A stretch of DNA of 53,580 nt from Acidobacteriota bacterium. GTDB taxonomy: Bacteria; Acidobacteriota; Blastocatellia; Pyrinomonadales; Pyrinomonadaceae. The position numbers and the translations under genes are program-made. The notes below the pieces were generated by a model, which was given only the letters and a program-made list of their open reading frames with translations, was not told where the DNA came from and did no database searches. Where the stretch lies: NCBI GenBank assembly GCA_040006435.1, contig JBDTWZ010000001.1, forward strand, positions 1-53,580, in the 5' to 3' direction. Within the stretch, counting starts at the first letter, position 1, and every line of letters begins with the position of its first letter. Shown here piece after piece: positions 6,036 to 52,260 of the stretch.

Positions 6036-7346
6036 TTACTCGAAGGCCTCCAAATATTTCACGCCAGAACCGGTGTTGAATAGCACGACAGTTTCACCAT
6101 CTTTAACCTCGGCTCGATCGATCAGTGTTAGTAAGGCGGGCAGGCACGCAGCACCCTCGGGAGCGGCAAAAACACCTTCGGTCGCACCGATCTCGCCGAC
6201 GGCTTTCACTAATTCTTCATCGCTCACAGCAATCGCGGTTCCACCCGATGCTCGGATAGCATCTAGGATCAAAAAATCGCCGATGGCTTTTGGAACTCGA
6301 AGGCCGGACGCGACGGTCGAAGCATTCTCGAATTCGTCAGCAAATCTGTCTCCTTTCTCGAACGCCCGCACTATCGGAGCGCAAGTTGCCGATTGGACCG
6401 TTACCATTCTTGGACGGCGCGAATCGATCCAGCCCATCTGCTCCATCTCGTCGAACGCTTTCCACATTCCGATCAAGCCGGTGCCGCCGCCGGTGGGATA
6501 AATGATCACGTCGGGTAAGTAGCGGGCTCTCTGATCGGGCACCACCCCGTCATCCGCTTCGCGGATGCCACCCCTCCTTAAACCAGGAGGGGAGCTATGT
6601 GCCAAACTCCCCTCCTGGTTTAAGGAGGGGTGGCCGAGGCTTTGCGAGGCCGGGGTGGTGCTGTAAGCGCCAAACTGTTCGAAGAGCTCATACCCCATCG
6701 TCTTCTTGCCTTCGACACGATACGGCTCTTTCAGCGTAGATACGTCAAACCAGCCTTCGGCCTCTTTTCTCTCGGCGACTATCTTTCCGCAATCCGTGAT
6801 CAAGCCGTCGACGAGAGTGACGTGCGCTCCCGTCTGCTCGCATTCGACGATGTTCGCTCGCGGAGTGTCGGATGGCATAAAGATAAATGCTTCCATTCCG
6901 GCTCGTGCGGCATACGCTGCCATCGCTCCCGCGGCGTTCCCCGCCGAAGGGACGGCGACCTTTTTCACGCCTAGCTCCTTTGCCATCGAGATCGCGGCCG
7001 TCATGCCGCGGGCTTTGAAGCTCTGCGTCGGGTTCTGGCCCTCGTCCTTGATGAACAGGTTTAGTTTGATCGGCAGTTTTTCCGCAAGTCGGCCGGCTTT
7101 TAGAAGCGGTGTCCAGCCTTCGCCAAAACTAATAATGTTGTCGGGGTTTTCAACCGGCAACACTTCGCGGTATCGCCACAATGACGATTCCCTCGACGCG
7201 AGTGCATCCGGCGTTATTGTCGCCGCAGCTTTTTCGAGGTCATATCGAACGAGCAGCGGCTTGCCGCATTCGACGCAGAGATTCTGCAGTTTATTCGCTT
7301 CGTGCCGCAGTCCGCAGAGCGCGCATTCGAGGTGTGTGACGTTCAT
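6036..7346 (-). CDS. thrC: threonine synthase carrying a 41-codon in-frame repeat insertion
   Basis: N-terminal Cys4 ribbon (CALCG...CVECG), PLP lysine motif TQSFKARG and glycine loop YPTGGGTGLIG. Start set at ATG 7346 (MNVTHLE), which removes the overlap with the upstream gene. Confidence 0.9.
   Translation of the reverse strand: MNVTHLECALCGLRHEANKLQNLCVECGKPLLVRYDLEKAAATITPDALASRESSLWRYREVLPVENPDNIISFGEGWTPLLKAGRLAEKLPIKLNLFIKDEGQNPTQSFKARGMTAAISMAKELGVKKVAVPSAGNAAGAMAAYAARAGMEAFIFMPSDTPRANIVECEQTGAHVTLVDGLITDCGKIVAERKEAEGWFDVSTLKEPYRVEGKKTMGYELFEQFGAYSTTPASQSLGHPSLNQEGSLAHSSPPGLRRGGIREADDGVVPDQRARYLPDVIIYPTGGGTGLIGMWKAFDEMEQMGWIDSRRPRMVTVQSATCAPIVRAFEKGDRFADEFENASTVASGLRVPKAIGDFLILDAIRASGGTAIAVSDEELVKAVGEIGATEGVFAAPEGAACLPALLTLIDRAEVKDGETVVLFNTGSGVKYLEAFE
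6539..6661. repeat. 123-bp nested palindromic element inside thrC
   Basis: Outer 11-bp inverted repeat GCACCACCCCG/CGGGGTGGTGC (6539-6549, 6651-6661). Inner perfect 27-bp inverted repeat (6568-6594, 6607-6633) with a 12-nt loop. Each inner arm contains its own 8-bp hairpin CCCCTCCT-TAAACC-AGGAGGGG. Confidence 0.9.
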
Positions 7347-7383
7347 AGACCGAATCAATATAGCTCGAGCAGCGAGCTCCGGG

Positions 7384-8064
7384 TCACTTCTTCCAAACAA
7401 ATTCTTTGAACAAATTGAAGGCGGCATTAAAGCCGAGTGAGAGGGTACCGCTTCGAACGCCATCTTTCCAATCGTATCGATCCGGGTACCACGTTTCGTA
7501 GGCGATGATGCTCGACGTGAATGTTCCGGCTAAGTTCGGGACGCCGATGACACGCTTACCATACCTATCACGCGCCGTGACGGGCGAGATGAGTACGTTC
7601 CGGATGCGGGCGGACACGCTTTTTTTCCGACTGCGATAGAAATGACTGTCCAATTTCATCGCTTCGTCGAGACCAAACTTCGTAGTTTGTTTGATCGCAT
7701 TCTTACCAAAGTTGGATGCGACGCGGCGCCCAAAACCTTCCCATTTCGTTCCCCACTCTGCCGGCGAATTACGCCAGGTAGAAATTCCCGCGGTCGCGAT
7801 CATTCTTCCAAGAGCGAACGGCCCAACGGTGCTGTTGATGAACCGCTTTTGGCGCGTAGCAGCGGTAGGTCGAACATAGTCAGTAGACGGCTTCACCGTG
7901 AATAGCCCGGGCTGAACCGTCGACCTTTGGAGTTCTTTATTCTGGTCTTTATCCGCAAGGTCGGTTGCGGTCGTTGGATCTGGTGTCGGCGTCGGTGTGG
8001 GGTCCTGCGCTAGTGTGACAGACGTCGCGAACAGAAGAGTCATTAGCAAAAAGTGCGGTTTCAT
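7384..8064 (-). CDS. hypothetical secreted protein
   Basis: Signal peptide MKPHFLLMTLLFATSVTLAQ followed by a PTPTPTPDP linker. No recognisable catalytic motif. Confidence 0.6.
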   Translation of the reverse strand: MKPHFLLMTLLFATSVTLAQDPTPTPTPDPTTATDLADKDQNKELQRSTVQPGLFTVKPSTDYVRPTAATRQKRFINSTVGPFALGRMIATAGISTWRNSPAEWGTKWEGFGRRVASNFGKNAIKQTTKFGLDEAMKLDSHFYRSRKKSVSARIRNVLISPVTARDRYGKRVIGVPNLAGTFTSSIIAYETWYPDRYDWKDGVRSGTLSLGFNAAFNLFKEFVWKK

Positions 8065-9609: not shown

Positions 9610-9690
9610 CGAGGTATGAGCGTCGTCGCGAGAATCGCCGCCGGTCAAACTCTTTTCACTTTTCACTTTTCACTCGTCACTCATCACTCG
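9599..9690 (+). repeat. heptamer-periodic GTGA/TCAC hairpin element (copy 2), spanning the ybbA stop and ending 7 nt before the ybbP ATG
   Basis: Perfect 13-bp inverted repeat GATGAGTGACGAG (9601-9613) / CTCGTCACTCATC (9673-9685). Core CCGGTCAAA. Tandem 7-mers ACTTTTC ACTTTTC ACTCGTC ACTCATC ACTCG (9658-9690). Confidence 0.8.
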
Positions 9691-15530: not shown

Positions 15531-17408
15531 CTATTCCGCTCGAAGGATTAGTTTGTAGATCGTGTACATGCCCACGACCTCGCCGCCATCCCGTACGTAC
15601 CATTTATCGAGATTGCTGAGATCGGTGTCCGCATCGTTCCTTACCACGGCGTAGGACAGCATGGGGTTTGCGGCGTTGACGGCGTTGAATGCGGACCTAT
15701 AGGCGGCGTAGCGCTCGACCTCAGAGTCGATCTCACCATAGGTCAGCGGCGTTGCTTCGCTGCTCAGACGATCGGTGTGTCTTCCCCAACCAAAGAGCGC
15801 GATCTTCGTGACGAAGTCATTTTTCAAAAGATAATCCAGAACCTCTTCATCGACATTTGAGTAATAAAGATATTGAAAGTAACGGTCCTTATTTTCCTGC
15901 CAGGACATCCCGGCAAATACATGCTGATGACGCGACCACAGAACGTTCTGCGGCGCGATGCTCGGCAAATCGTCCGACTGGATCATGTCGTACGCCAGCA
16001 CGGTGGAGCGATACGGATCGACATCCTCTAGTGACAACTCTTCGAGTCGTTTCGCGACTGGCAGCGCAATATCGCGCTCGACGTTCGCACCGTCCAGGAC
16101 GCGCACCGTGTAATGGCACTCGACAAATCCCCAGAGGATCGCGACGATGGCAAGCGATGCGCAGGCTAGTTTCGCCCGGGCACTTTCTATACTCAACCAT
16201 TGGCGAAGCAAAACTCCGATGGTCACGATCAGAGCGAGTGCCGCAACATAATTCCCGATGAACACCTGATAATGGATCGGCTGCAGCGAACGTCCAGTGA
16301 CGATCTGCTGATTGAAGATAATAAAAGGAACAAGAGCCAGCGAGAGTGCGAATAGAGTCGACCTGTCGCCCGGAGCGATCATCCTTTTCGTGACGCCGAC
16401 AGCAAGCAACAGCAGACATATCAAGCTTACATATTCGGGCATCCGCCACAGGTCCGGCACCCGCGTGTAAACCAAGAGTTGGACGTCGTCCATCGTCTCG
16501 GACCGTTTCGAAAGCAGCCAGGCGTACGGAATGACGGCGAGTGCACAGCCGACCCCGACGGCGATAAGGTTCTTTATATCCCGCCCAAAACTTTCCGGCC
16601 GAAATACAAGCCAGACAACGAAAAGACATCCGAGCCAGGCGGCCGCAGTCGTCCAGATGTAGAAATAAGAGAAGACGGTGTAGGCGAAGAGAAAGATCGC
16701 GGCGGTGAGAAATAAATAGCGCTGGAGAGCGGAACCGGTAGCGACCGGTTTTCCCGGTGATGGATCGATCGCCTTGACGGGCGACCCGGTCGCTACCGCT
16801 CCCGGTTCTGACTTCCGTTCTTCAACAAGGCGCCAGACCACCGCAAACAAACCGAACACTGCGGCCATTGCCATCGCCGGAATATATCGGCGAAATCCGG
16901 GAAAGTACGGATAAGAGAATCCATCGAAGAATATCTCGGGCATCGCACCTTCGCCCGCGGCCAGGGCTCCGCCTGCGAATACGACAAGCGAACCGGCCAT
17001 TCCGAACCAACTGCTCCCGGTGATCCGCGCGATCAGCCAAAACGCAGCAAGCGCCGCCAGAAAGCCCGCGGCGGCTCCGGACAAGGTCATCGCCCACGGC
17101 GTTCCGACACCAAGGATCCGCGCAGGGATCGCGATCGAGTATGGCGCGGCGAATTGGATGGAAAAAAGTGATTCGGGCTGCGGCGTCAAAGGCGATTCGT
17201 CGCGACCCGAATAAGGATCATTCTTCCGCGGACGGCCGTCGATCAACGCACGAACGTAAGAGGCATAAGCAACTTCGTCGATGTCGTTGTATGCGTAGTG
17301 CCCGTTCCACTCCGACCCGCGCAGATAGAACATGTTCAACTGCGGGTAGAGGCAAAAAATTGCAAGGAATACAGCGGCGACAATGCCGAAGCGCCAGCGA
17401 AGCTTCAT
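15531..17408 (-). CDS. large polytopic membrane protein of unknown function carrying an in-frame palindromic repeat
   Basis: 625 aa with at least 10 hydrophobic segments and a soluble C-terminal domain. No catalytic motif recognised. Confidence 0.75.
   Translation of the reverse strand: MKLRWRFGIVAAVFLAIFCLYPQLNMFYLRGSEWNGHYAYNDIDEVAYASYVRALIDGRPRKNDPYSGRDESPLTPQPESLFSIQFAAPYSIAIPARILGVGTPWAMTLSGAAAGFLAALAAFWLIARITGSSWFGMAGSLVVFAGGALAAGEGAMPEIFFDGFSYPYFPGFRRYIPAMAMAAVFGLFAVVWRLVEERKSEPGAVATGSPVKAIDPSPGKPVATGSALQRYLFLTAAIFLFAYTVFSYFYIWTTAAAWLGCLFVVWLVFRPESFGRDIKNLIAVGVGCALAVIPYAWLLSKRSETMDDVQLLVYTRVPDLWRMPEYVSLICLLLLAVGVTKRMIAPGDRSTLFALSLALVPFIIFNQQIVTGRSLQPIHYQVFIGNYVAALALIVTIGVLLRQWLSIESARAKLACASLAIVAILWGFVECHYTVRVLDGANVERDIALPVAKRLEELSLEDVDPYRSTVLAYDMIQSDDLPSIAPQNVLWSRHQHVFAGMSWQENKDRYFQYLYYSNVDEEVLDYLLKNDFVTKIALFGWGRHTDRLSSEATPLTYGEIDSEVERYAAYRSAFNAVNAANPMLSYAVVRNDADTDLSNLDKWYVRDGGEVVGMYTIYKLILRAE
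16729..16812. repeat. palindromic GTAGCGACC-type element inside the membrane-protein gene
   Basis: Perfect 12-bp inverted repeat GGTAGCGACCGG (16737-16748) / CCGGTCGCTACC (16786-16797) around an ATCGAT centre. The right half (16778-16812) is 33/35 identical to 20597-20631. Confidence 0.85.
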
Positions 17409-17470: not shown

Positions 17471-18181
17471 ATGAAAACTTATTTCGCGTCCTGTCGTCTG
17501 GTGGCGCTCGTAGGGTGTCTGACCATAGTTCTGTGCCTCGGACTGGATCTCAAGACACACGCGCAGGATACGGAACCTAGACTTCTATCACAGCCGGGAT
17601 TTGTTCTGTCGGAAAAAGCCGTTGCAGCCGGCATCGACGGTGTATTCAACGTATCCCTCTCGATAGACAAGACTGGTAAGGTGAAAACGGTAACTCTTCA
17701 TGGCGGTCCCGCGTGGCCATGCAACACCTCACCATGGTCCGAGATCGAATCGGTACGTGACGCAGTGAAAAAACATCTCATGTCGATAGTCTTCGCACCT
17801 GCGACAAAGAACGGAAAACCGTATGACGTGGATGTAAGGCTGGACTTTGCTATCGGCGAAGCGTATAAGCGTGCGGTAGCGATCGAAGAGGCTGAAAAGG
17901 CTGCCGCCGCGGGAAAGCTGATCGTCGTCAAAGCCGGAGTGGTCAATGGAAAAGCGATTCGCTTAACGAAACCTCGGTACGCGGGCATTCGGGGCGTGGT
18001 GACGATTCAGGTTTTGATAGATGAAAGGGGGAACATTGCGAACGCAGGGGGAATGAGCGGGCATCCATTTCTAGTAAAGAGCGCTCGTGAAGCCGCTTGC
18101 GAATCTAAGTTTTCACCCACGATCATAGAAGGCAAGCCGGTTAAAGTTACCGGGATTATCACGTACAACTATGTTCCTTAG
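17471..18181 (+). CDS. secreted protein with two TonB-C-like domains
   Basis: Signal peptide. The C-terminal module GIRGVVTIQVLIDERGNI...GHPFL..SAREAA..SKF.P....GKPVKV matches the TonB C-terminal fold signature. An N-terminal degenerate copy is present. Confidence 0.7.
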   Translation: MKTYFASCRLVALVGCLTIVLCLGLDLKTHAQDTEPRLLSQPGFVLSEKAVAAGIDGVFNVSLSIDKTGKVKTVTLHGGPAWPCNTSPWSEIESVRDAVKKHLMSIVFAPATKNGKPYDVDVRLDFAIGEAYKRAVAIEEAEKAAAAGKLIVVKAGVVNGKAIRLTKPRYAGIRGVVTIQVLIDERGNIANAGGMSGHPFLVKSAREAACESKFSPTIIEGKPVKVTGIITYNYVP

Positions 18182-18255
18182 CAGCTTGTTCTAAGCTTGG
18201 AAACTTAGGTCGTCGCCGCTAACATTCGTTCCACCATCTAATAGGGAGAGATACT

Positions 18256-18840
18256 ATGAAACTCGGACTACTCTGCCTGCTGCTGTTGTTACCCTCCTTT
18301 GCTTTCTCGGGCGAGATCGAGGAACAAAACAAAGCTCTCGCACGTCGCTTCTACGAAGAAGTATGGTTCAAAAACAATCCTGCGGCGGTCGATGAAAGCT
18401 TCGCGCCGACCTACATCGCCCACGACATCGGAGATCGCAAGAACTCGATGGAGCCGGCGGACGAGCAGAAGAAGATCGCCCAGTTCTTTTGGGACCGCGG
18501 ATCGATGACCGGTACGATCGATTACCAGATCGCCGAGGGCGATCTGGTCGCGACGCGCTGGCAGTGGTATTTCAAACCGAACGTCTGGTGGATGAAGCTG
18601 CTCGGCGGCAGCGAGCAGCACATCCCGATCATAAACGTCATGCGCATTCGCGATGGCAAGATAGTCGAGATCTGGAACCACCGACACGACATCGACACGA
18701 TGCAGGCGAACTTCATTTTTGTGAAAGGGTTGGTCGCGGGGCTGATTCCATCTATCATACTTCTGGTTTTGATGTTCTTGATGTGGCGAAGATCACGGAG
18801 GAATAGGATTTTGAGTCCGCGTCCGACGCGAGAAGCTTGA
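18256..18840 (+). CDS. SnoaL-like (ester cyclase-type) protein with C-terminal membrane anchor
   Basis: Signal peptide, NKALARRFYEEVW motif typical of SnoaL-like folds, and a C-terminal hydrophobic helix LVAGLIPSIILLVLMFLMW. Confidence 0.6.
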   Translation: MKLGLLCLLLLLPSFAFSGEIEEQNKALARRFYEEVWFKNNPAAVDESFAPTYIAHDIGDRKNSMEPADEQKKIAQFFWDRGSMTGTIDYQIAEGDLVATRWQWYFKPNVWWMKLLGGSEQHIPIINVMRIRDGKIVEIWNHRHDIDTMQANFIFVKGLVAGLIPSIILLVLMFLMWRRSRRNRILSPRPTREA

Positions 18841-18843
18841 TAT

Positions 18844-19548
18844 ATGAAAATCACAGTCTCATTCACATGCCTGATGCTTTTGTCCGCGACCACCGCGCAA
18901 TTCGCCCCGGCCCAATCGACCTTTAACTCCATGGCAGATATCAAACAGACACCGCCAATTTCGATACCGGAAGCGGCCGTGAAAAGCGGCATCAGCGGTG
19001 AAGTGCGCGTTTCCGTTAAGGTCGATCGGGAAGGAAATGTCGCAAGCGTCGCCGGTGCGTACGGACCTGGATCTGTATGCCAGCAGGTTACGCGGGCGGA
19101 CGTTATCGCCTTGCGAGAGGCGGCTCGCGACGCAGCAAAGAATGCTAAGTTTGAGCCGGCGAGAAAAGACGGACGATTTGCCGAGGTTGGATGGGTGCGT
19201 TTTGATATTCCCGTTCGCTCGGCAGACGACGATGAAAAGGTCCTACGTTTCAGTGCCGCGGGCGGCAACGGTGCCGACGGATACGGCTTTCTAAAAACTA
19301 ACGGTATCAGTCTCCCTAAGCCTCCCTACCCGGCCGCCGCACGGGCACTCCGAGCGACCGGCGGTGTTTCTATCGAATTGCTGATCGACGAGAATGGTGA
19401 CGTATTCTCTGCCGCGCCCGTTAGTGGCCATCCCCTACTGCGATTCGCGGCGCGGGACGCGGCATGCGAGGCCAAGTTCAAGCCAACTTTACTCGGCGGC
19501 AAGCCGGTGAAGATCGCCGGCGTGATCACCTATTCCTTTCGCCCGTAA
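18844..19548 (+). CDS. secreted protein with two TonB-C-like domains (paralogue of 17471..18181)
   Basis: Same architecture as 17471..18181. The C-termini are near-identical in pattern (GHPLLRFAARDAACEAKFKPTLLGGKPVKIAGVITYSFRP against GHPFLVKSAREAACESKFSPTIIEGKPVKVTGIITYNYVP). Confidence 0.7.
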   Translation: MKITVSFTCLMLLSATTAQFAPAQSTFNSMADIKQTPPISIPEAAVKSGISGEVRVSVKVDREGNVASVAGAYGPGSVCQQVTRADVIALREAARDAAKNAKFEPARKDGRFAEVGWVRFDIPVRSADDDEKVLRFSAAGGNGADGYGFLKTNGISLPKPPYPAAARALRATGGVSIELLIDENGDVFSAAPVSGHPLLRFAARDAACEAKFKPTLLGGKPVKIAGVITYSFRP

Positions 19549-19649: not shown

Positions 19650-21545
19650 GTGAAACCGACAAACATTAACGATCCCGAATATTTTCATAAGGTGGTGGAT
19701 TGCCAGTACGCATGTCCGGCCCACACACCGGTGCCGGAGTACATTCGCCTCATCGCCGAGGGAAAGTACACCGAGGCGTACATGATCAACTGGGACTCGA
19801 ATGTATTTCCCGGAATCCTCGGGCGTACATGCGATCGCCCGTGCGAACCGGCATGCCGGCGCGGCCGCATTGACGAAGAGCCGGTTGCGATCTGTCGTCT
19901 GAAGCGCGTTGCCGCGGATAATAAAGACGATGTCAAACATTTGATGCCGCAGGCGCCGTTCAAGCCGAACGGAAAAAAGGTGGCGCTGATCGGCGCCGGT
20001 CCTGCTTCCCTGACGGTCGCACGCGATCTGGCACCGCTCGGCTACGAGATCCATCTGTTCGACGAACAGTACAAGGGCGGCGGGTTTATGCTCAGCCAGA
20101 TCCCCGCGTTTCGTCTGCCCGAAACGGTGCTCGACGAAGAGGTAAACTACATTCTCGACCTCGGCATTCACACACACTTCAAACATTACGTCTCGTCGCT
20201 GAAAGAAGTCCTAGAGCAGGATTACGACGCCGTGTTTGTCGGCACGGGCGCACCGCGCGGACGCGAACTGAAGATCCCCGGCCGTGAAGAAGGCGCGGCG
20301 AACATTCACATCGGCATTAACTGGCTCGGCAGCGTCGCATTCGAACACACGAGCAAGATCGGCAAGAACGTCATCGTGCTCGGCGGCGGCAACACCGCGA
20401 TGGACTGCTGCCGCACCGCGCGCCGTGTCGGCGGCGAAGACGTCAAGGTCATCGTCCGCTCGCCGTTCGCCGAGATGAAGGCATCGCCGTGGGAAAAAGA
20501 AGACGCACAGCACGAGGACATCCCGATCATCGACAACCACGTACCGAAGTCATTCGTGATCGAATACGACGAAGATAACGACGCCGGGACGGATCTGTCA
20601 GAACCGCGAGCGGTAGCGACCGGGTCACCCGGTGGGAGTTCGACGCCTAAGGGCCGTCTCAAGGGCGTCATGTTCGAAAAGGTAGAAGCGAAGTACGACG
20701 CCGCCGGCAAACGTTCGCTCGTCCCGACCGGCGAGCCCGACGTGTTCTTCCCCGCCGACGATGTTCTCGTCGCAATTGGTCAGGAAAACTCGTTCCCCTG
20801 GATCGAGCGCAACATCGGTCTCGATTTCGACAAGTGGGAGATGCCGATCGTCGACAAGACGACATTTCAATCGACGCATCCGAAAGTTTTCTTCGGCGGC
20901 GACGCGGCGTTCGGTCCCGAGAATGTCATCACCGCCGTCGCTCACGGACACCAGGCGGCCGTCTCGATAGATCTGCTTTGCAACAAAAAGAATCTGCTGA
21001 CCGAGCGACTTCACCCGATGGTCAATCTCGTCTCGCAAAAGATGGGTATCCACGAATGGGCATACGACAGCGAGATCGACGAATACGACCGACTCGTCGT
21101 CCCGCAGGCGCCGAAAACAAAGACGCTCGTCAATCGAAAACAGGAAGTCGAGATGGGATTCGACCGGCTCGCCGGATTCAAGGAAGCGGAACGGTGCTTG
21201 AACTGCGATGTTCAGACCGTCTTCGACGCACCGAAATGCATCGAGTGCGACGCCTGCGTCGACATCTGCCCGACAGCCTGCATCACCTTCACCGCGAACG
21301 GCGACGAAGAAGATCTTCGCTCGCGAACAAAAGTTCCCGCCCTCACTCTCACACAGGACCTCTACGTCTCTGAGCCGCTTATCCAAACCAAACGGATCAT
21401 GGTCAAGGACGAAGACGTGTGCCTCCATTGCGGCCTCTGCGCCGAACGCTGCCCGACCGCCGCCTGGGACATGCAAAAATTCTGGTACGACGTGACGAAG
21501 GCCGGCGAGGTCAAGTACGGGTGTAATGGAAATGGTGGGGGGTAA
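19650..21545 (+). CDS. GltD-like FAD/NAD(P)-dependent oxidoreductase fused to a 2x[4Fe-4S] ferredoxin domain, with an in-frame repeat insertion
   Basis: N-terminal Fe-S segment CQYACPAHTP...CDRPCEPAC, dinucleotide folds VALIGAGPASL and VIVLGGGNTAMD, C-terminal CLNCD...CIECDACVDICP and CLHCGLCAERCP. GTG start after GGAGA. Confidence 0.85.
   Translation: MKPTNINDPEYFHKVVDCQYACPAHTPVPEYIRLIAEGKYTEAYMINWDSNVFPGILGRTCDRPCEPACRRGRIDEEPVAICRLKRVAADNKDDVKHLMPQAPFKPNGKKVALIGAGPASLTVARDLAPLGYEIHLFDEQYKGGGFMLSQIPAFRLPETVLDEEVNYILDLGIHTHFKHYVSSLKEVLEQDYDAVFVGTGAPRGRELKIPGREEGAANIHIGINWLGSVAFEHTSKIGKNVIVLGGGNTAMDCCRTARRVGGEDVKVIVRSPFAEMKASPWEKEDAQHEDIPIIDNHVPKSFVIEYDEDNDAGTDLSEPRAVATGSPGGSSTPKGRLKGVMFEKVEAKYDAAGKRSLVPTGEPDVFFPADDVLVAIGQENSFPWIERNIGLDFDKWEMPIVDKTTFQSTHPKVFFGGDAAFGPENVITAVAHGHQAAVSIDLLCNKKNLLTERLHPMVNLVSQKMGIHEWAYDSEIDEYDRLVVPQAPKTKTLVNRKQEVEMGFDRLAGFKEAERCLNCDVQTVFDAPKCIECDACVDICPTACITFTANGDEEDLRSRTKVPALTLTQDLYVSEPLIQTKRIMVKDEDVCLHCGLCAERCPTAAWDMQKFWYDVTKAGEVKYGCNGNGGG
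20597..20660 (+). repeat. GTAGCGACC-type repeat inside the GltD-like gene
   Basis: GTCAGAACCGCGAGCGGTAGCGACCGGGTCACCCG (20597-20631) matches the reverse complement of 16778-16812 at 33/35. It is followed by GACGCCTAAGGGCCGTC, which resembles the REP hairpin core. Confidence 0.8.
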
Positions 21546-22168: not shown

Positions 22169-22183
22169 TCTTAGCGATTGTCG

Positions 22184-22501
22184 CGGAGCGACCACATGCA
22201 TTTAGCCGTGGCCTTAAGGCCACGGCTTCCGACGACCCGTTCCTGCCGCATCAGCGGTAGTTGGTTCAATTGCCGCTAACGCGGCAAGAATTACTTGCAT
22301 CCTCCAACCGTGGCCTGAAGGCCACGGCTAAAGGCGTCTGCCCGCTACGCGGTCAGCTCGCCGGATCGAGGGTCGAGGCGACGCGGTCGGGTCGAGGCAA
22401 GGTGGGCGAGGCAAGGTCGTCGCGTAGCGACCGCATGCATTTAGCCGTGGCCTTAAGGCCACGGTTTTCCGACGACCCCGTTCCTGCCGCGTCAGCGGTA
22501 G
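22184..22501. repeat. cluster of three REP units (alternating orientation, BIME-like)
   Basis: Units of about 80 nt. Each has a GTAG-containing head (CGCGTAGCGACC), hairpin core GCCGTGGCC-loop-GGCCACGGC (cores at 22205-22226, 22308-27, 22444-64) and a second small hairpin CTGCCGC-NTCA-GCGGTAG. The middle unit is inverted. Confidence 0.9.
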
Positions 22502-22507
22502 GTGAAA

Positions 22508-22960
22508 TCAATCGAAAACATATTGCAGGTCGTACTCGATGCCATGCAGCCTGAGCAGCGAGATATATTCCTCTTCGAAGGTCTCGCCATTGTGATGCTC
22601 CCGCTGGTTCTCGATGTATCGAATTACGTCCGGAACTTGTGATTTACTTACGGAGAATATCCCGTAGCCGTCCTGCCAGCCGAAATAGCTCAGGTTCGAG
22701 AATTCGTCGTGAATCCACTTGGAAGAGCCACCTTTTAGCCACATTGGGATCTTGCACGGCGGAACGACCGGCTTCGCCATAACAAGTCCGTGAACGTGAT
22801 TCTCGATGCCTCCAACTCTTAAAGAGGTTACGTCGTGTTTCCGTGCGATTCCGCCGATATAGTTCCAAACACGTTCTTCGATCTCTTGGTAAATAAAGTT
22901 ACGCCGCTCTTTCGTACTAAAGACGATGTGGTAGAAGAGTTGGGAATACGTGTTTGCCAT
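22508..22960 (-). CDS. REP-associated tyrosine transposase (RAYT; IS200/IS605 TnpA Y1 family)
   Basis: 150 aa with HUH motif HVHGLV, catalytic-Tyr region WQDGYG, and N-terminal YHIVFSTKERR typical of Y1 transposases. REPs flank it on both sides in inverted orientation. Confidence 0.9.
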   Translation of the reverse strand: MANTYSQLFYHIVFSTKERRNFIYQEIEERVWNYIGGIARKHDVTSLRVGGIENHVHGLVMAKPVVPPCKIPMWLKGGSSKWIHDEFSNLSYFGWQDGYGIFSVSKSQVPDVIRYIENQREHHNGETFEEEYISLLRLHGIEYDLQYVFD

Positions 22961-22978: not shown

Positions 22979-23050
22979 TCTACCGCTGAGGCGGCAATGT
23001 GACCGTGGCCTAAAGGGCCACGGCTAAATGCGTGCGGCCGCTACGCGGCT
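22979..23050. repeat. REP unit (inverted relative to 22419-22501)
   Basis: CTACCGCTGAGGCGGCA...CCGTGGCCTAAAGGGCCACGGCTAAATGCGTGCGGCCGCTACGCGG. This is the reverse complement of the REP consensus, including the GTAG head. Confidence 0.9.
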
Positions 23051-23273
23051 GCTACCACATTTCGAGTTTGGTCCGCGGCCATCTTAGAAAGGCATCGACA
23101 AACTCGTCTTTAATTTTTCTGAATTGTTCCGAAATGCATCAGCATCCGCACGCCGAGCGACATCGCCGGTCATCCATTCAGGTCACGAAAGCTCGCACGG
23201 ACAGATGCATGTAGGGGGTAATCGGCTCCCGCGCTTGGTTCCAAGGGCACTTTCGGTTAATCCTACGTAGAGC

Positions 23274-31426: not shown

Positions 31427-31528
31427 GTGTCTATTATAGACGATGCACGATCGAACTCTTTTTATTCCCTGAGACTTCTCTTATAATAGCCCGTCGAACG
31501 TATCGATCATCCCTGTTATGACTTGTTT

Positions 31529-33499
31529 ATGAAGATCAACGACTTTGTAGTCCGCTTTGCGAATGTGAACGGTACCGGTTCGGCATCGGCCAACGCACTG
31601 TTTACAAAGGCAGTGTTTCGCATGGGCGTGCCGGTGACGCCGAAGAATATCTTTCCGTCGAATATCCAGGGGCTGCCGACGTGGTACGAGGTGCGTATTT
31701 CGGAAGGCGGACATCTCGGCCGCCGCGAGGGCGTCGATCTGATGATCGCGGTCAATCCGCAGTCGATGAAAAAGGATTACGCCGATGTTCGCGAGGGCGG
31801 CTATTTTCTTTACGACTCCTCGAAGCCCCTCGCACCCGGTTACGATCGGACCGACATCACCCATATCGGCATCCCGCTGATGACTCTCTGCAATGCAGAG
31901 TTTACCGACGCACGCCAGCGCCAGCTTTTCAAGAACATCGTCTATATCGGAGCCCTTGTCGCTCTGTTCGGGATCGAGTTTGAAATGCTCGAGCAGCTCG
32001 TCGGCGAACAGTTCCGCGGTAAGGAAAAATTGATCGAGCCTAACATCCGGGCGCTCAACATCGGGGTGAAATACACGCGGGAGAATTTCGAATGTCCGTT
32101 AGACATACGCGTCGAACGCCGCGACCTGCTCGGCGATAAAGTTCTTTACAGCGGCAATTCGGCGTGCGCACTCGGTGCGATCTATGCCGGAGCAACCGTC
32201 GCCGCGTGGTATCCGATCACACCTTCAACATCGGTCGTCGATGCGTTTGCCAAGTATGCCGCTAAGTACCGCGTCGACGCCGAGACGGGTATGAACAACT
32301 ACGCGATCGTGCAGGCCGAGGACGAACTCGCGGCGATCGGAATGGTAATGGGCGCGTGCTGGAACGGCGCACGTGCGTTCACCGCGACGAGCGGCCCGGG
32401 CATCTCTCTGATGAACGAGTTCCTCGGCCTCGGCTATTTTGCCGAGGTGCCGACGGTGCTAATAGACGTACAACGAACCGGCCCATCCACCGGCATGCCG
32501 ACGCGGACACAGCAATCCGACATTTTGCTCGCGGCGTATGCGTCGCACGGCGATACAAAACATCCGCTGTTGTTCCCAGCCTCGCCGAAGGAATGTTTCG
32601 AGATGACGGCCGACGCCTTCGATCTGACCGAGCGTCTTCAGACGCCGGTCATCGTCATGACGGATCTCGATCTCGGGATGAACGATCACATCACCGAGCC
32701 TCTTGTTTGGGATGACGCCCGTAAATTTGACCGCGGCAAGGTCCTTACAGCCAGACATCTTGAACGCCTCGGCGGTGCGGCACTGGCTGATATCGTCGAG
32801 GGGATGGAGAACGAAACCGACGGCGACGCGTTCGCGGGCAGCGCCATTGAACAGTTTCGCGGTAAATTTGGCCGCTATCTTGACATCGACGACGACGGTA
32901 TTCCGTACCGCACAGTTCCCGGCGTTCATCCGACGCGCGGGGCATATGTCACACGCGGCTCATCGCGTGACGAGTACGCAGTCTACACCGAGGACGGCGA
33001 CGTCTATCGTCGCAACATGGACCGCCTCGCCCGCAAGTGGGACACGGCGAAGGAGCTGGTGCCGCAGCCGGAATTTTATGGCGACGCGGGGACGGGGCGA
33101 CACGGAGAAGGGGAGAAAGGGAGAAAGGGAGAGGGGCCGACCTCTGACTCGTCACTCGTCACTCGTCCCTCATCACTAAAAAATGACGCCGTCATTTTTT
33201 TCGGAACCTCCACATACGCAGCGATCGAGGCATTGGAGCTATTAGCCGATGAGGGAATCCGACTCGACGCGATGCGAGCCCGTGGATTCCCTTTTGGAAA
33301 GTCGTTTCGTGATTTCATCGACTCACACGACCGCGTCTTCGTCATCGAACAAAACCGCGATGCGCAGTTTCGCAGCCTGATGATGATCGAATTAGGAGTC
33401 GACGCATCAAAGCTTGTTTCGGTCCTAAACTACGACGGGATGCCGATCACGGCGGACAACATCTTCATACAGATTAATTCATTTTCTCAGGACCAATGA
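31529..33499 (+). CDS. korA: 2-oxoacid:ferredoxin oxidoreductase, fused gamma-alpha subunit, with an in-frame repeat insertion
   Basis: N-terminal gamma-like VNGTGSASANALF...PSNIQGLPTWYEVR, and alpha domain with TGPSTGMPTRTQQSD. ATG 31529 preferred over TTG 31523. No beta-subunit gene follows. Confidence 0.85.
   Translation: MKINDFVVRFANVNGTGSASANALFTKAVFRMGVPVTPKNIFPSNIQGLPTWYEVRISEGGHLGRREGVDLMIAVNPQSMKKDYADVREGGYFLYDSSKPLAPGYDRTDITHIGIPLMTLCNAEFTDARQRQLFKNIVYIGALVALFGIEFEMLEQLVGEQFRGKEKLIEPNIRALNIGVKYTRENFECPLDIRVERRDLLGDKVLYSGNSACALGAIYAGATVAAWYPITPSTSVVDAFAKYAAKYRVDAETGMNNYAIVQAEDELAAIGMVMGACWNGARAFTATSGPGISLMNEFLGLGYFAEVPTVLIDVQRTGPSTGMPTRTQQSDILLAAYASHGDTKHPLLFPASPKECFEMTADAFDLTERLQTPVIVMTDLDLGMNDHITEPLVWDDARKFDRGKVLTARHLERLGGAALADIVEGMENETDGDAFAGSAIEQFRGKFGRYLDIDDDGIPYRTVPGVHPTRGAYVTRGSSRDEYAVYTEDGDVYRRNMDRLARKWDTAKELVPQPEFYGDAGTGRHGEGEKGRKGEGPTSDSSLVTRPSSLKNDAVIFFGTSTYAAIEALELLADEGIRLDAMRARGFPFGKSFRDFIDSHDRVFVIEQNRDAQFRSLMMIELGVDASKLVSVLNYDGMPITADNIFIQINSFSQDQ
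33104..33200 (+). repeat. composite periodic repeat inside korA (purine octamers, ACTCGTC heptamers, 11-bp palindrome)
   Basis: GGAGAAGG GGAGAAAG GGAGAAAG GGAGAGGG (33104-33135). ACTCGTC x3 plus CCTCATC ACT (33147-33177), shared with 9672-9688. AAAAAATGACG-C-CGTCATTTTTT (33178-33200). Confidence 0.8.
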
Positions 33500-51012: not shown

Positions 51013-51207
51013 TTTAAATTGCCCCAACCTTTAGGTCGGGGTCACATGAGCGCTAAGCTCCGGCTTTAGCCGAAATATAAACAAAGCTTCCTTTTTGGCT
51101 ATAGGCGAATTCAGCTAAAGCTAAAGGGATTTTTTTTTCGATCGCATTCGGCTAAAGCCGGGTTCCGGACTCTTCTTACCCCGACCTAAAGGTCGGGGCA
51201 ATTTAAA
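51013..51207. mobile_element. 195-bp MITE-like palindromic element
   Basis: 30-bp terminal inverted repeats TTTAAATTGCCCCAACCTTTAGGTCGGGGT / ACCCCGACCTAAAGGTCGGGGCAATTTAAA (1 mismatch). Internal inverted repeat CCGGCTTTAGCCGAA (51060-74) / TTCGGCTAAAGCCGG (51147-61). No ORF. Confidence 0.8.
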
Positions 51208-51937: not shown

Positions 51938-52003
51938 GAATGAAGTTTAGCAGACGCGTACCCGCAAATCGGCGAGATGCCGACAAGGCACGCCGCGTCG
52001 GGC

Positions 52004-52175
52004 CGCGTAGCGGCCGCTCGCATTTAGCCGTGGCCTTCAGGCCACGGATGAAGGTCAACAAATCTTGCCGCGTCAGCGGCAATTGAGAATTCGTGCGGTC
52101 GCTACGCGACGCAATTGATTTTTCCGACTACCCGTGGCCTAAGGGCCACGGCTAAACTCGATTGACCGCGACGGG
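52004..52175. repeat. REP doublet of the same family as at 22.2-23.0 kb
   Basis: CCGCGTAGCGGCCGCTCGCATTTAGCCGTGGCCTTCAGGCCACGG...CTTGCCGCGTCAGCGGCAA, then an inverted, partly rearranged unit with core CCGTGGCCTAAGGGCCACGGCTAAA (52132-52155). Confidence 0.85.
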
Positions 52176-52260
52176 GGCAAAGAATTTGTAGGCCGTCGGC
52201 GTGAGCTCAGTCAAGATTGAAGCAGTGCGTGCATTTCACGAGATGGGTTAAAATATCTCC

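Follow-up and report, generated by a model that had tools for sequence, protein, structure and literature searches.

Why do two unrelated genes of one bacterial genome carry the same 35 nucleotides in the same reading frame? The question is raised by a stretch of 53,580 nucleotides (the window) from a member of the Pyrinomonadaceae, phylum Acidobacteriota (GCA_040006435.1, contig JBDTWZ010000001.1, positions 1 to 53,580). In this window, the 35-mer GTCAGAACCGCGAGCGGTAGCGACCGGGTCACCCG at 20597-20631 on the plus strand lies within a gene for a GltD-like flavoprotein. It equals, at 33 of 35 positions, the reverse complement of 16778-16812, which lies within a minus-strand gene for a membrane protein. 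The analysis leads us to the view that the 35-mer is, in all likelihood, a unit of a non-autonomous, hairpin-forming family of dispersed repeats that resembles repetitive extragenic palindromes (REPs), is specific to Pyrinomonadaceae/Blastocatellia and makes in-frame insertions at permissive loops of proteins.

The shared 35-mer in the window

The match is genuine and non-random; none of 100 dinucleotide-preserving shuffles gave a match with three or fewer mismatches. Both copies stand in the same phase of long open reading frames (ORFs), whose translations read SEPRAVATGSP for the 20597 copy and SEPGAVATGSP for the 16778 copy, and the 35-mer is free of stops in four of its six frames. A first-pass annotation of the window had claimed this match, its identical frame and sense, and the four open frames, and all of this was borne out. 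The common frame is not significant by itself, because it is one of the four open ones, each of which intragenic copies use in other genomes. The 9-mer GTAGCGACC occurs five times in the window versus 0.29 expected; three of these occurrences belong to the coding repeat, including a decayed inverted half-copy at 16730-16757, and the other two lie in REP clusters of intergenic DNA, at 22424 and 52097.

That gene conversion had carried the repeat from one window gene to the other was considered and rejected, since the similarity is confined to the 35-mer and the repeat family is widespread. An assembly artefact was likewise rejected because the same kind of insert is found in many independent assemblies.

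The insertion site in the GltD-like gene

The first host gene (19650..21545, plus strand) codes for a protein of 631 amino acids with the Pfam domains Fer4_20, Pyr_redox_2 and Fer4_7, and is an Fe-S flavoprotein of GltD/NfnB/SudA-like type that ends in a C-terminal 2x[4Fe-4S] domain. An alignment of 120 orthologues, 81-93% identical, contains a sole internal indel site, located after residue 305. At this point 51 of the 120 proteins have the empty site ...PKSFVIE-DG-[KR]L-KGVMFEKV..., and the other 69 carry 13-77 extra residues at exactly the same position. Distant metagenome relatives all have the empty site; the metagenome scan returned almost only empty-site proteins and serves as a reference for the empty site, being uninformative on the turnover of inserts. 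These alignments show that the segment is an insertion and that the empty-site alleles are ancestral, so that an origin of the segment as ancestral protein sequence, which the first-pass annotation had left to an orthologue comparison, is ruled out. In neighbour-joining order, computed with the hotspot columns left out, filled and empty alleles interleave.

In the window, the insert comprises 29 codons in frame (20565..20651, plus strand), encoding YDEDNDAGTDLSEPRAVATGSPGGSSTPK in place of the empty VIE-DG-[KR]L. The first-pass annotation had guessed the inserted residues nearly correctly; they are YDEDNDAGTDLSEPRAVATGSPGGSSTP(K). The insert is a composite of four pieces: a head YDED, the peptide DAGTD, the REP-like unit and a tail PGGSSTPK. 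Head and tail are common to close relatives (the tail as TP(R)KGRL), and DAGTD is a remnant of another repeat. The repeat therefore supplies about 12 of the 29 inserted residues, the remainder being older composite insert material. The solo unit extends over 20596..20626 on the plus strand and is translated as L-SEPRAVATGS. It consists of the tag TGTCAGAA (20596-20603), the left half-stem CCGCGAGC (20604-20611), the loop GGTA (20612-20615) and the right half-stem GCGACCGG (20616-20623), which is followed by a tail GTC. Similarity to the family reaches 20631 (the variant GGGTCACCCG). When the 96-nt insert region was compared by BLAST with about 1.7 Mb of collected loci, family similarity was found at 20595-20631 only.

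The inserts at this site in the orthologues are recognisable translated repeats of many families. Among them are SEPGAVATG, LSVPPAVAGGS, DAETRGRGDAE/AETRPVGRVS, SPPYKGGVAAASADGVVL and NPQSEIRNP, as well as WSVVGGQWS...TTDHR, VPPSGGS...PPEGGTQ, ADTPVRMAD...DKSVRAP and TDKSHESH, and in many inserts an inverted pair is present with its two arms. The hotspot DNA of the window was aligned with that of a sister genome, L200 (GCA_041745575.1), and of the relatives L201, L202, L203 and L204. The window unit is in register with the sibling units TGTCAGTACCACCTGCGGTAGCGGGTGGGTC (LSVPPAVAGGS; L202-L204) and GGAAACCCGACCGGTAGGGAGGGTGTC (AETRPVGRVS; L200). These siblings keep the GGTA loop and a tandem G.A centre, with stem changes that are partly compensatory, and a head IE-Y-D/E-D/E and a tail T-P-(R)-K-G-R-L are common to the hotspot relatives. 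A unit of the window's family also occupies the site in L201. Its flanks differ there, and the clade of L201 otherwise abounds in empty alleles, pointing to a separate insertion event.

The tail also accounts for a palindrome, GACGCCTAAGGGCCGTC at 20642-20658, that the first-pass annotation, placing it some 22 nt after the head of the repeat, had read as an echo of the REP hairpin core. Its 11-nt core GCCTAAGGGCC does recur in a REP at 52137. The counterpart in L203 reads ACGCCT-CGT-AAGGGCCGC (TPRKGRL) and has no hairpin. Since relatives carry this longer form, the palindrome results from the loss of one Arg codon in the older, shared tail, and its likeness to a REP hairpin is coincidental.

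The dimer in the membrane-protein gene

The second host gene (15531..17408, minus strand) encodes a conserved hydrophobic membrane protein of 625 amino acids without a Pfam hit, and its matches in our search were restricted to Pyrinomonadaceae-like genomes. Here the repeat occurs as a pair. An intact left unit, GTCAGAACCGGGAGCGGTAGCGACCGGGTCGCCCG (16778..16812, minus strand), is translated as SEPGAVATGSP, and a decayed, inverted right unit, CCGGGAAAACCGGTCGCTACCGGTTCCG (16730..16757, minus strand), as GKPVATGSA. Both lie in a hypervariable loop between two predicted hydrophobic helices (residues ~196-231; 16716..16820, minus strand), which is the sole internal indel region among 120 orthologues of this protein. 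Where the window dimer has decayed, orthologues keep a full right arm, PVATA[PSRH]GSD, and SEPGAVATG...PVATA[PSRH]GSD dimers are present in the loop in 7 and 10 of the 120 orthologues. Other orthologues fill the loop with other inverted pairs, e.g. AECGMRNAE...SAFRIPHSA. The left boundary of the window dimer, ERK-SEPGAVATG, is that of orthologue P0122, whose right arm is intact; the window dimer is therefore inherited and decaying.

Synteny with the window is preserved in the sister genome L200, whose GltD-like protein has 93% identity to that of the window. Both L200 hotspots are filled with repeats that differ from the window's and are also met in other loci. The window's own family is represented there by a complete 90-nt dimer in the intergenic DNA between the same two genes. 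In both host proteins, the insert lies at the one internal site that varies in length, and across relatives this permissive site has repeatedly been filled by different repeat families or by sibling sub-families in register.

The two host genes are separated in the window by a TonB_C, a SnoaL-like and a second TonB_C gene (17471-19548). This trio is absent from L200 (9704-10000), where the REP dimer stands in its place. L200 may have lost these genes, because SnoaL, either alone or together with TonB_C, stands upstream of the GltD-like gene in L202-L204.

Architecture of the repeat unit

The consensus unit, tGTCAGAA-CCGGgaGC-GGTA-GCgaCCGG-gtc, has about 31 nt and consists of a tag and an 8-bp stem closed by a GGTA loop, with a conserved tandem G.A/A.G mismatch at the stem centre. 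Covariation was observed within single arms: a change from C to G at position 21 goes with C at position 8 in 24 of 28 copies, and G at position 22 goes with C at position 7 in 13 of 19. This covariation inside one arm indicates that each single unit forms its own hairpin. The stems also show G-T wobbles, and variants with a perfect 8-bp stem exist, e.g. CCGCTCGC-GGTA-GCGAGCGG. Predicted folding energies are -12.4 (RNA) and -6.9 (DNA) kcal/mol for the consensus and -17.7 kcal/mol for perfect-stem variants. The unit in the GltD-like gene contains an additional C.C mismatch in its stem, and its predicted fold differs.

Among the matches listed in the census described below, 76 of 98 pairs of neighbouring copies are convergent, with total lengths of mostly 59-163 nt. 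The arms are 27-31 nt long, reaching ~44 nt in some sub-families, and enclose variable interiors, as in the window membrane gene and in the L200 dimer (L200:9765-9854). Solo units and tandem units of the same orientation also occur (L091, L057, L058, L064). No target-site duplication was detected, the length distribution of flanking direct repeats being that of the random control with a maximum of 2 nt. Searches of Rfam with the window (gathering threshold) and with seven full-dimer loci (E-value scan) returned only sub-threshold miRNA-hairpin noise. Because of the hairpin covariation, the convergent dimers and the lack of target-site duplication, we assign the element, on its sequence features, to REP-like units. 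Usually it appears as a head-to-head dimer with a variable spacer, the architecture of REPs and of their paired form, REPIN.

Distribution of the family

The distribution of the family was assessed by an exact-pattern scan with CAGAACCGNNAGCGGTAGCGACCGG in one genome per species. At least 119 genome stretches contained a match. Those listed are, by their source labels, all metagenome-assembled genomes (MAGs) of Pyrinomonadaceae, Blastocatellia, ‘Chloracidobacterium’ or Acidobacteriota, and the names on orthologous proteins of both hosts give the same taxonomy. Among the matches listed there are 155 exact copies and 241 with up to five mismatches, and single assemblies yield at least five loci. 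About 70% of the exact copies (108/155) fall in no stop-free stretch of 150 codons or more, compared with 18% of random positions in the same loci (82% inside). A census, as proposed in the first-pass annotation, thus finds many copies, most of them intergenic, and rules out that the two window copies stand alone without intergenic relatives.

A further 22 of the 155 copies are near the 5′ end and 12 near the 3′ end of such open stretches, the former probably just upstream of start codons. Deep-internal copies number 13 of 155, in nine ORFs; a first intragenic estimate of 30% was discarded as an overcount caused by copies just upstream of start codons. Hosts in which Pfam domains were confirmed on both sides of the element are the succinyl-CoA synthetase alpha subunit SucD (L119), a beta-lactamase-fold protein (L047), a DUF512 radical-SAM protein (L043) and GlcD-GlcE junctions (L091, L004). 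Intragenic copies use all four open frames, translated as SEPGAVATG, VRTGSGSDRV, PVATAPGSD and RSLPLPVLT. By a loose criterion, SEPGAVATG is the commonest (19 of 47 intragenic copies), a preference that is not significant when the tandem copies of L091 are discounted. In viral contigs (IMG/VR), the exact family pattern was found in only 4 of 2.9 million (L205-L208), so the family is not phage-borne to a notable extent; these four are possibly prophage regions or mis-binned Pyrinomonadaceae DNA.

At the junction of the genes for the GlcD-like and GlcE-like FAD-binding proteins in L091, four tandem units and one inverted unit fill positions 6769-7078, and units likewise fill this junction in L004 (~357). 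The junction is thereby part of a single stop-free frame of 890 codons, which may reflect a repeat-mediated gene fusion. In L115 (CAVYWT010000001.1, 7870-7925), in a context unrelated to the GltD-like gene, a sibling unit GTCAGTACCGCCTGCGGTAGCGGGC (SVPPAVAG) adjoins a unit identical to the window GltD copy at 36 of 36 nucleotides. The same adjacency of two families is seen in protein P0007 (SEPRAVAIGDLSVPPALAGGS).

Alternative explanations

The window contains a candidate for the mobilisation of REPs, a Y1 (IS200-like) transposase of the REP-associated tyrosine transposase (RAYT) type, encoded at 22508-22960 on the minus strand (Y1_Tnp, E=2.9e-26), 2 kb from the repeat copy in the GltD-like gene. 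Arrays of small hairpins, GTCGCGTAGCGRCCGC, CCGTGGCCTTAAGGCCACGG and TGCCGCGTCAGCGGCA, lie at 22180-22500 and 23004-23051, where they flank the RAYT, and at 52002-52180 without a transposase; GTCGCGTAGCGRCCGC shows a compensatory Y/R change in the flanking arrays. The RAYT and its bracketing arrays look like a classical REPtron. It is conceivable that the coding repeat is a diverged member of this REP family, mobilised by this RAYT. Both are small G+C-rich hairpins of one genome, and the coding repeat has GTAGCGACC(G) in common with the RAYT-flanking unit GTCGCGTAGCGACCGC, as loop and 3′ half-stem, G(G)TA-GCGAC. Identity is restricted to these 9-10 nt, however, and the tag TGTCAGAA, the left half-stem and the dimer architecture are absent from the RAYT-flanking arrays. 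The arrays have other stems and tags, form intergenic clusters by the Y1 gene and are absent from the coding hotspots of the window. Flanking the RAYT genes of the window, L200 (two, with flanks as at the window RAYT), L111 and L020 one finds the CCGTGGCCTTAAGGCCACGG / GTCGCGTAGCGRCCGC / TGCCGCGTCAGCGGCA set and in no case the coding-repeat family, and the hairpin link through GACGCCTAAGGGCCGTC is a by-product of the codon deletion. We therefore consider this origin improbable. The first-pass annotation had seen in the coding repeat a diverged REP fixed inside a coding region. A REP-type dispersed repeat in frame is what we find, whereas its descent from the RAYT-associated REPs, argued from a shared head, does not hold; a distant homology at the superfamily level is possible.

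The arms around variable interiors could alternatively be transposase-binding terminal inverted repeats (TIRs), which would make the elements classical MITEs (miniature transposable elements with inverted repeats) or repeats of the ‘TIRYT’ type. Such an assignment would suit the host, as TIR-flanked tyrosine transposases are described as a distinct group in Acidobacteria, with moderately abundant TIR families, in a survey (PMC3733652). We nevertheless regard it as unlikely, as target-site duplications were not found, the covariation within a single arm makes each arm its own hairpin, solo and tandem units exist, and no transposase gene with these arms was seen in the DNA examined. The use of the same frame in both window genes, and the frequency of the SEPGAVATG frame among intragenic copies, might instead point to an ancestral or convergently selected protein motif, such as a linker or module, with the DNA identity being secondary. 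This is extremely improbable in view of the ancestral empty-site alleles, the non-coding location of the majority of copies, the use of all four open frames and the unrelated repeat families held by the same loops in relatives; moreover, the L115 copy is identical at the nucleotide level in an unrelated context. Finally, intragenic hairpins might be retained for an action in cis, on mRNA stability or translation pausing or as protein-binding sites. REPs elsewhere can act as RNA elements according to the same survey (PMC3733652), and G-T wobble pairs in the stems would fit such a role. The GltD copy with its extra mismatch is predicted to fold differently, though, the dimer in the membrane gene is losing its right arm to decay, the site in relatives lacks the unit or holds other families, and Rfam gave no match, which makes a cis-acting role very unlikely.

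Insertion at permissive loops as the probable explanation

An insertion of REP-like units into tolerant protein loops accounts best for the data. For the GltD-like protein, the position of the insert would fit an exposed beta-turn in the NAD(P)H-binding domain, as placed from family knowledge. When the protein is aligned with solved chains (NfnA, NfnI-L, GltD and related ones), the match is lost at ~293-332 and regained at ...GR[LV]..., where the homologues have a DGG turn. In an AlphaFold2 model, residues 308-333 form a low-confidence coil between strands 297-306 and 335-349. Units would spread in single-stranded form, depending on the hairpin and without duplication, in a manner like that of RAYT/IS200-IS605 elements. 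With four of six frames open, a copy that arrives in frame at an exposed loop able to tolerate it survives as an extra flexible peptide rich in Gly, Ala, Ser, Pro and Thr (SEPGAVATGS, or PVATAPGSD in the opposite orientation). The units would later turn over by decay, nested insertion or conversion. It seems likely that such inserts are neutral or nearly neutral passengers and not functional modules.

Several points weigh against this interpretation. The model of the GltD-like protein, built from a 49-sequence alignment, is poor (mean pLDDT 48.8) and was used for secondary structure only, so that placement in a surface loop rests on secondary structure and homologue alignments. Calls of intragenic and intergenic copies are based on stop-free stretches and are approximate. 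The mobility of the family is inferred from its distribution, and the window itself contains no intergenic copy of the family. A cognate transposase was sought by tblastn of the window RAYT against 122 loci with inspection of flanks; none of the Y1 genes examined is flanked by the TGTCAGAA family, including those of the window, L200 (two), L111, L020, L108 and L203. In addition, selection alone may not account for the gathering of inserts at one site per protein.

A more specific and rather doubtful idea is that both loops are preferred, reusable ‘landing pads’ at which sibling hairpin families are gained, seamlessly lost and swapped in register, whether through transposition of single strands in a peel-and-paste-like manner or because repeat copies convert one another.

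Other repeats in the window

Further repeats were noticed in the window. A PLP-dependent enzyme (ORF 6036-7463, minus strand; Pfam PALP in two stretches) has an in-frame insert of about 50 residues, AYSTTPASQSLGHPSLNQEGSLAHSSPPGLRRGGIREADDGVVPDQRARY, at 6540-6670. It contains a perfect 28-nt inverted repeat (6567-6594/6607-6634), another palindromic dimer translated within a gene. A 2-oxoacid:ferredoxin oxidoreductase alpha/gamma-like protein (ORF 31523-33499, plus strand; POR and POR_N) includes, at 33090-33185, the segment GDAGTGRHGEGEKGRKGEGPTSDSSLVTRPSSL. This derives partly from the heptamer repeats ACTCGTC/ACTCATC, which also occur in intergenic DNA at 9644-9689, and is probably a third in-frame repeat insert. 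A 38-nt inverted repeat pair TTTAAATTGCCCCAACCTTTAGGTCGGGGTCACATGAG, 89% complementary and of yet another palindromic type, is intergenic at 51013-51207.

Relation to known repeats and significance

The family is a new example of a known phenomenon, the intragenic insertion of REP-like or Rickettsia palindromic element (RPE)-like repeats, and not a new kind of system. Hairpin units in head-to-head dimers are already known as REP/REPIN architecture (Di Nocera et al. 2013, PMC3733652; Bertels and Rainey 2011, PMC3116915). The family shares with these elements the 8-bp stem, the 4-nt loop, a conserved unpaired end tag and sub-families set apart by compensatory stem changes. It also shares the prevalence of head-to-head dimers with 20-100 nt spacers, the lack of target-site duplication and a mainly extragenic location, only a minority of the units, dimers and clusters lying within genes, where they code for 10-80 amino acids. 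Intragenic units, dimers and clusters coding for 20-82 residues are described there for Opitutus, Thauera and Rickettsia (PMC3733652). The TGTC of its tag resembles a listed degenerate form of the CGTC tag, and CGTC REPs likewise have stems of 8-9 bp, loops of 4-5 nt and no dedicated transposase (PMC3733652). The family differs in its host phylum, Acidobacteria appearing in the survey for TIR-flanked transposases only (PMC3733652). It also differs in its tag, (T)GTCAGAA, in which the four unpaired bases AGAA separate TGTC from the stem, in the conserved tandem G.A mismatch, in having GTAG within the loop and stem and not at the end, and in the lack of a RAYT flanked by it among the Y1 genes examined.

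In-frame RPEs (PMC3733652, PMC10969869) and the QMITEs of Coxiella (PMC5896051) are palindromic mobile repeats with open frames that insert in unrelated housekeeping genes and leave these intact, presumably in exposed loops. The present family behaves alike in the genes for the GltD-like and membrane proteins and elsewhere in those for SucD, the DUF512 and beta-lactamase-fold proteins and GlcD/E. RPEs, in contrast, measure ~100-150 bp, have conserved interiors and belong to obligate intracellular Proteobacteria, whereas here the units are of ~31 nt, the dimers have variable spacers, a minority is intragenic and one loop is reused by many families across orthologues. This hotspot behaviour and the in-register replacement of sibling units go beyond the textbook picture.

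A literature search returned no paper that links Pyrinomonadaceae or Blastocatellia with REPs or MITEs, and our data add a REP/REPIN-like family, not described before, from a soil phylum that has received little study. In practical terms, such repeats are a source of spurious ‘hypothetical proteins’ (e.g. ...RSLPLPVLT...) and of length-variable orthologues in annotation, and they cause breaks in the assembly and binning of MAGs. Single-site hotspots with dozens of natural inserts are also maps of insertion-tolerant loops, as in the NfnB/GltD-type flavoprotein. If the hotspots arise from targeting or from excision without a trace, they would open a way to study how REPs move. For the organisms themselves, translated selfish DNA is part of their proteins, in at least four genes of this 53-kb window. 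Should the loops indeed act as landing pads, the Pyrinomonadaceae would offer a natural system in which in-frame insertion mutagenesis keeps recurring, and their coding loops would be long-lived archives of extinct REP families.

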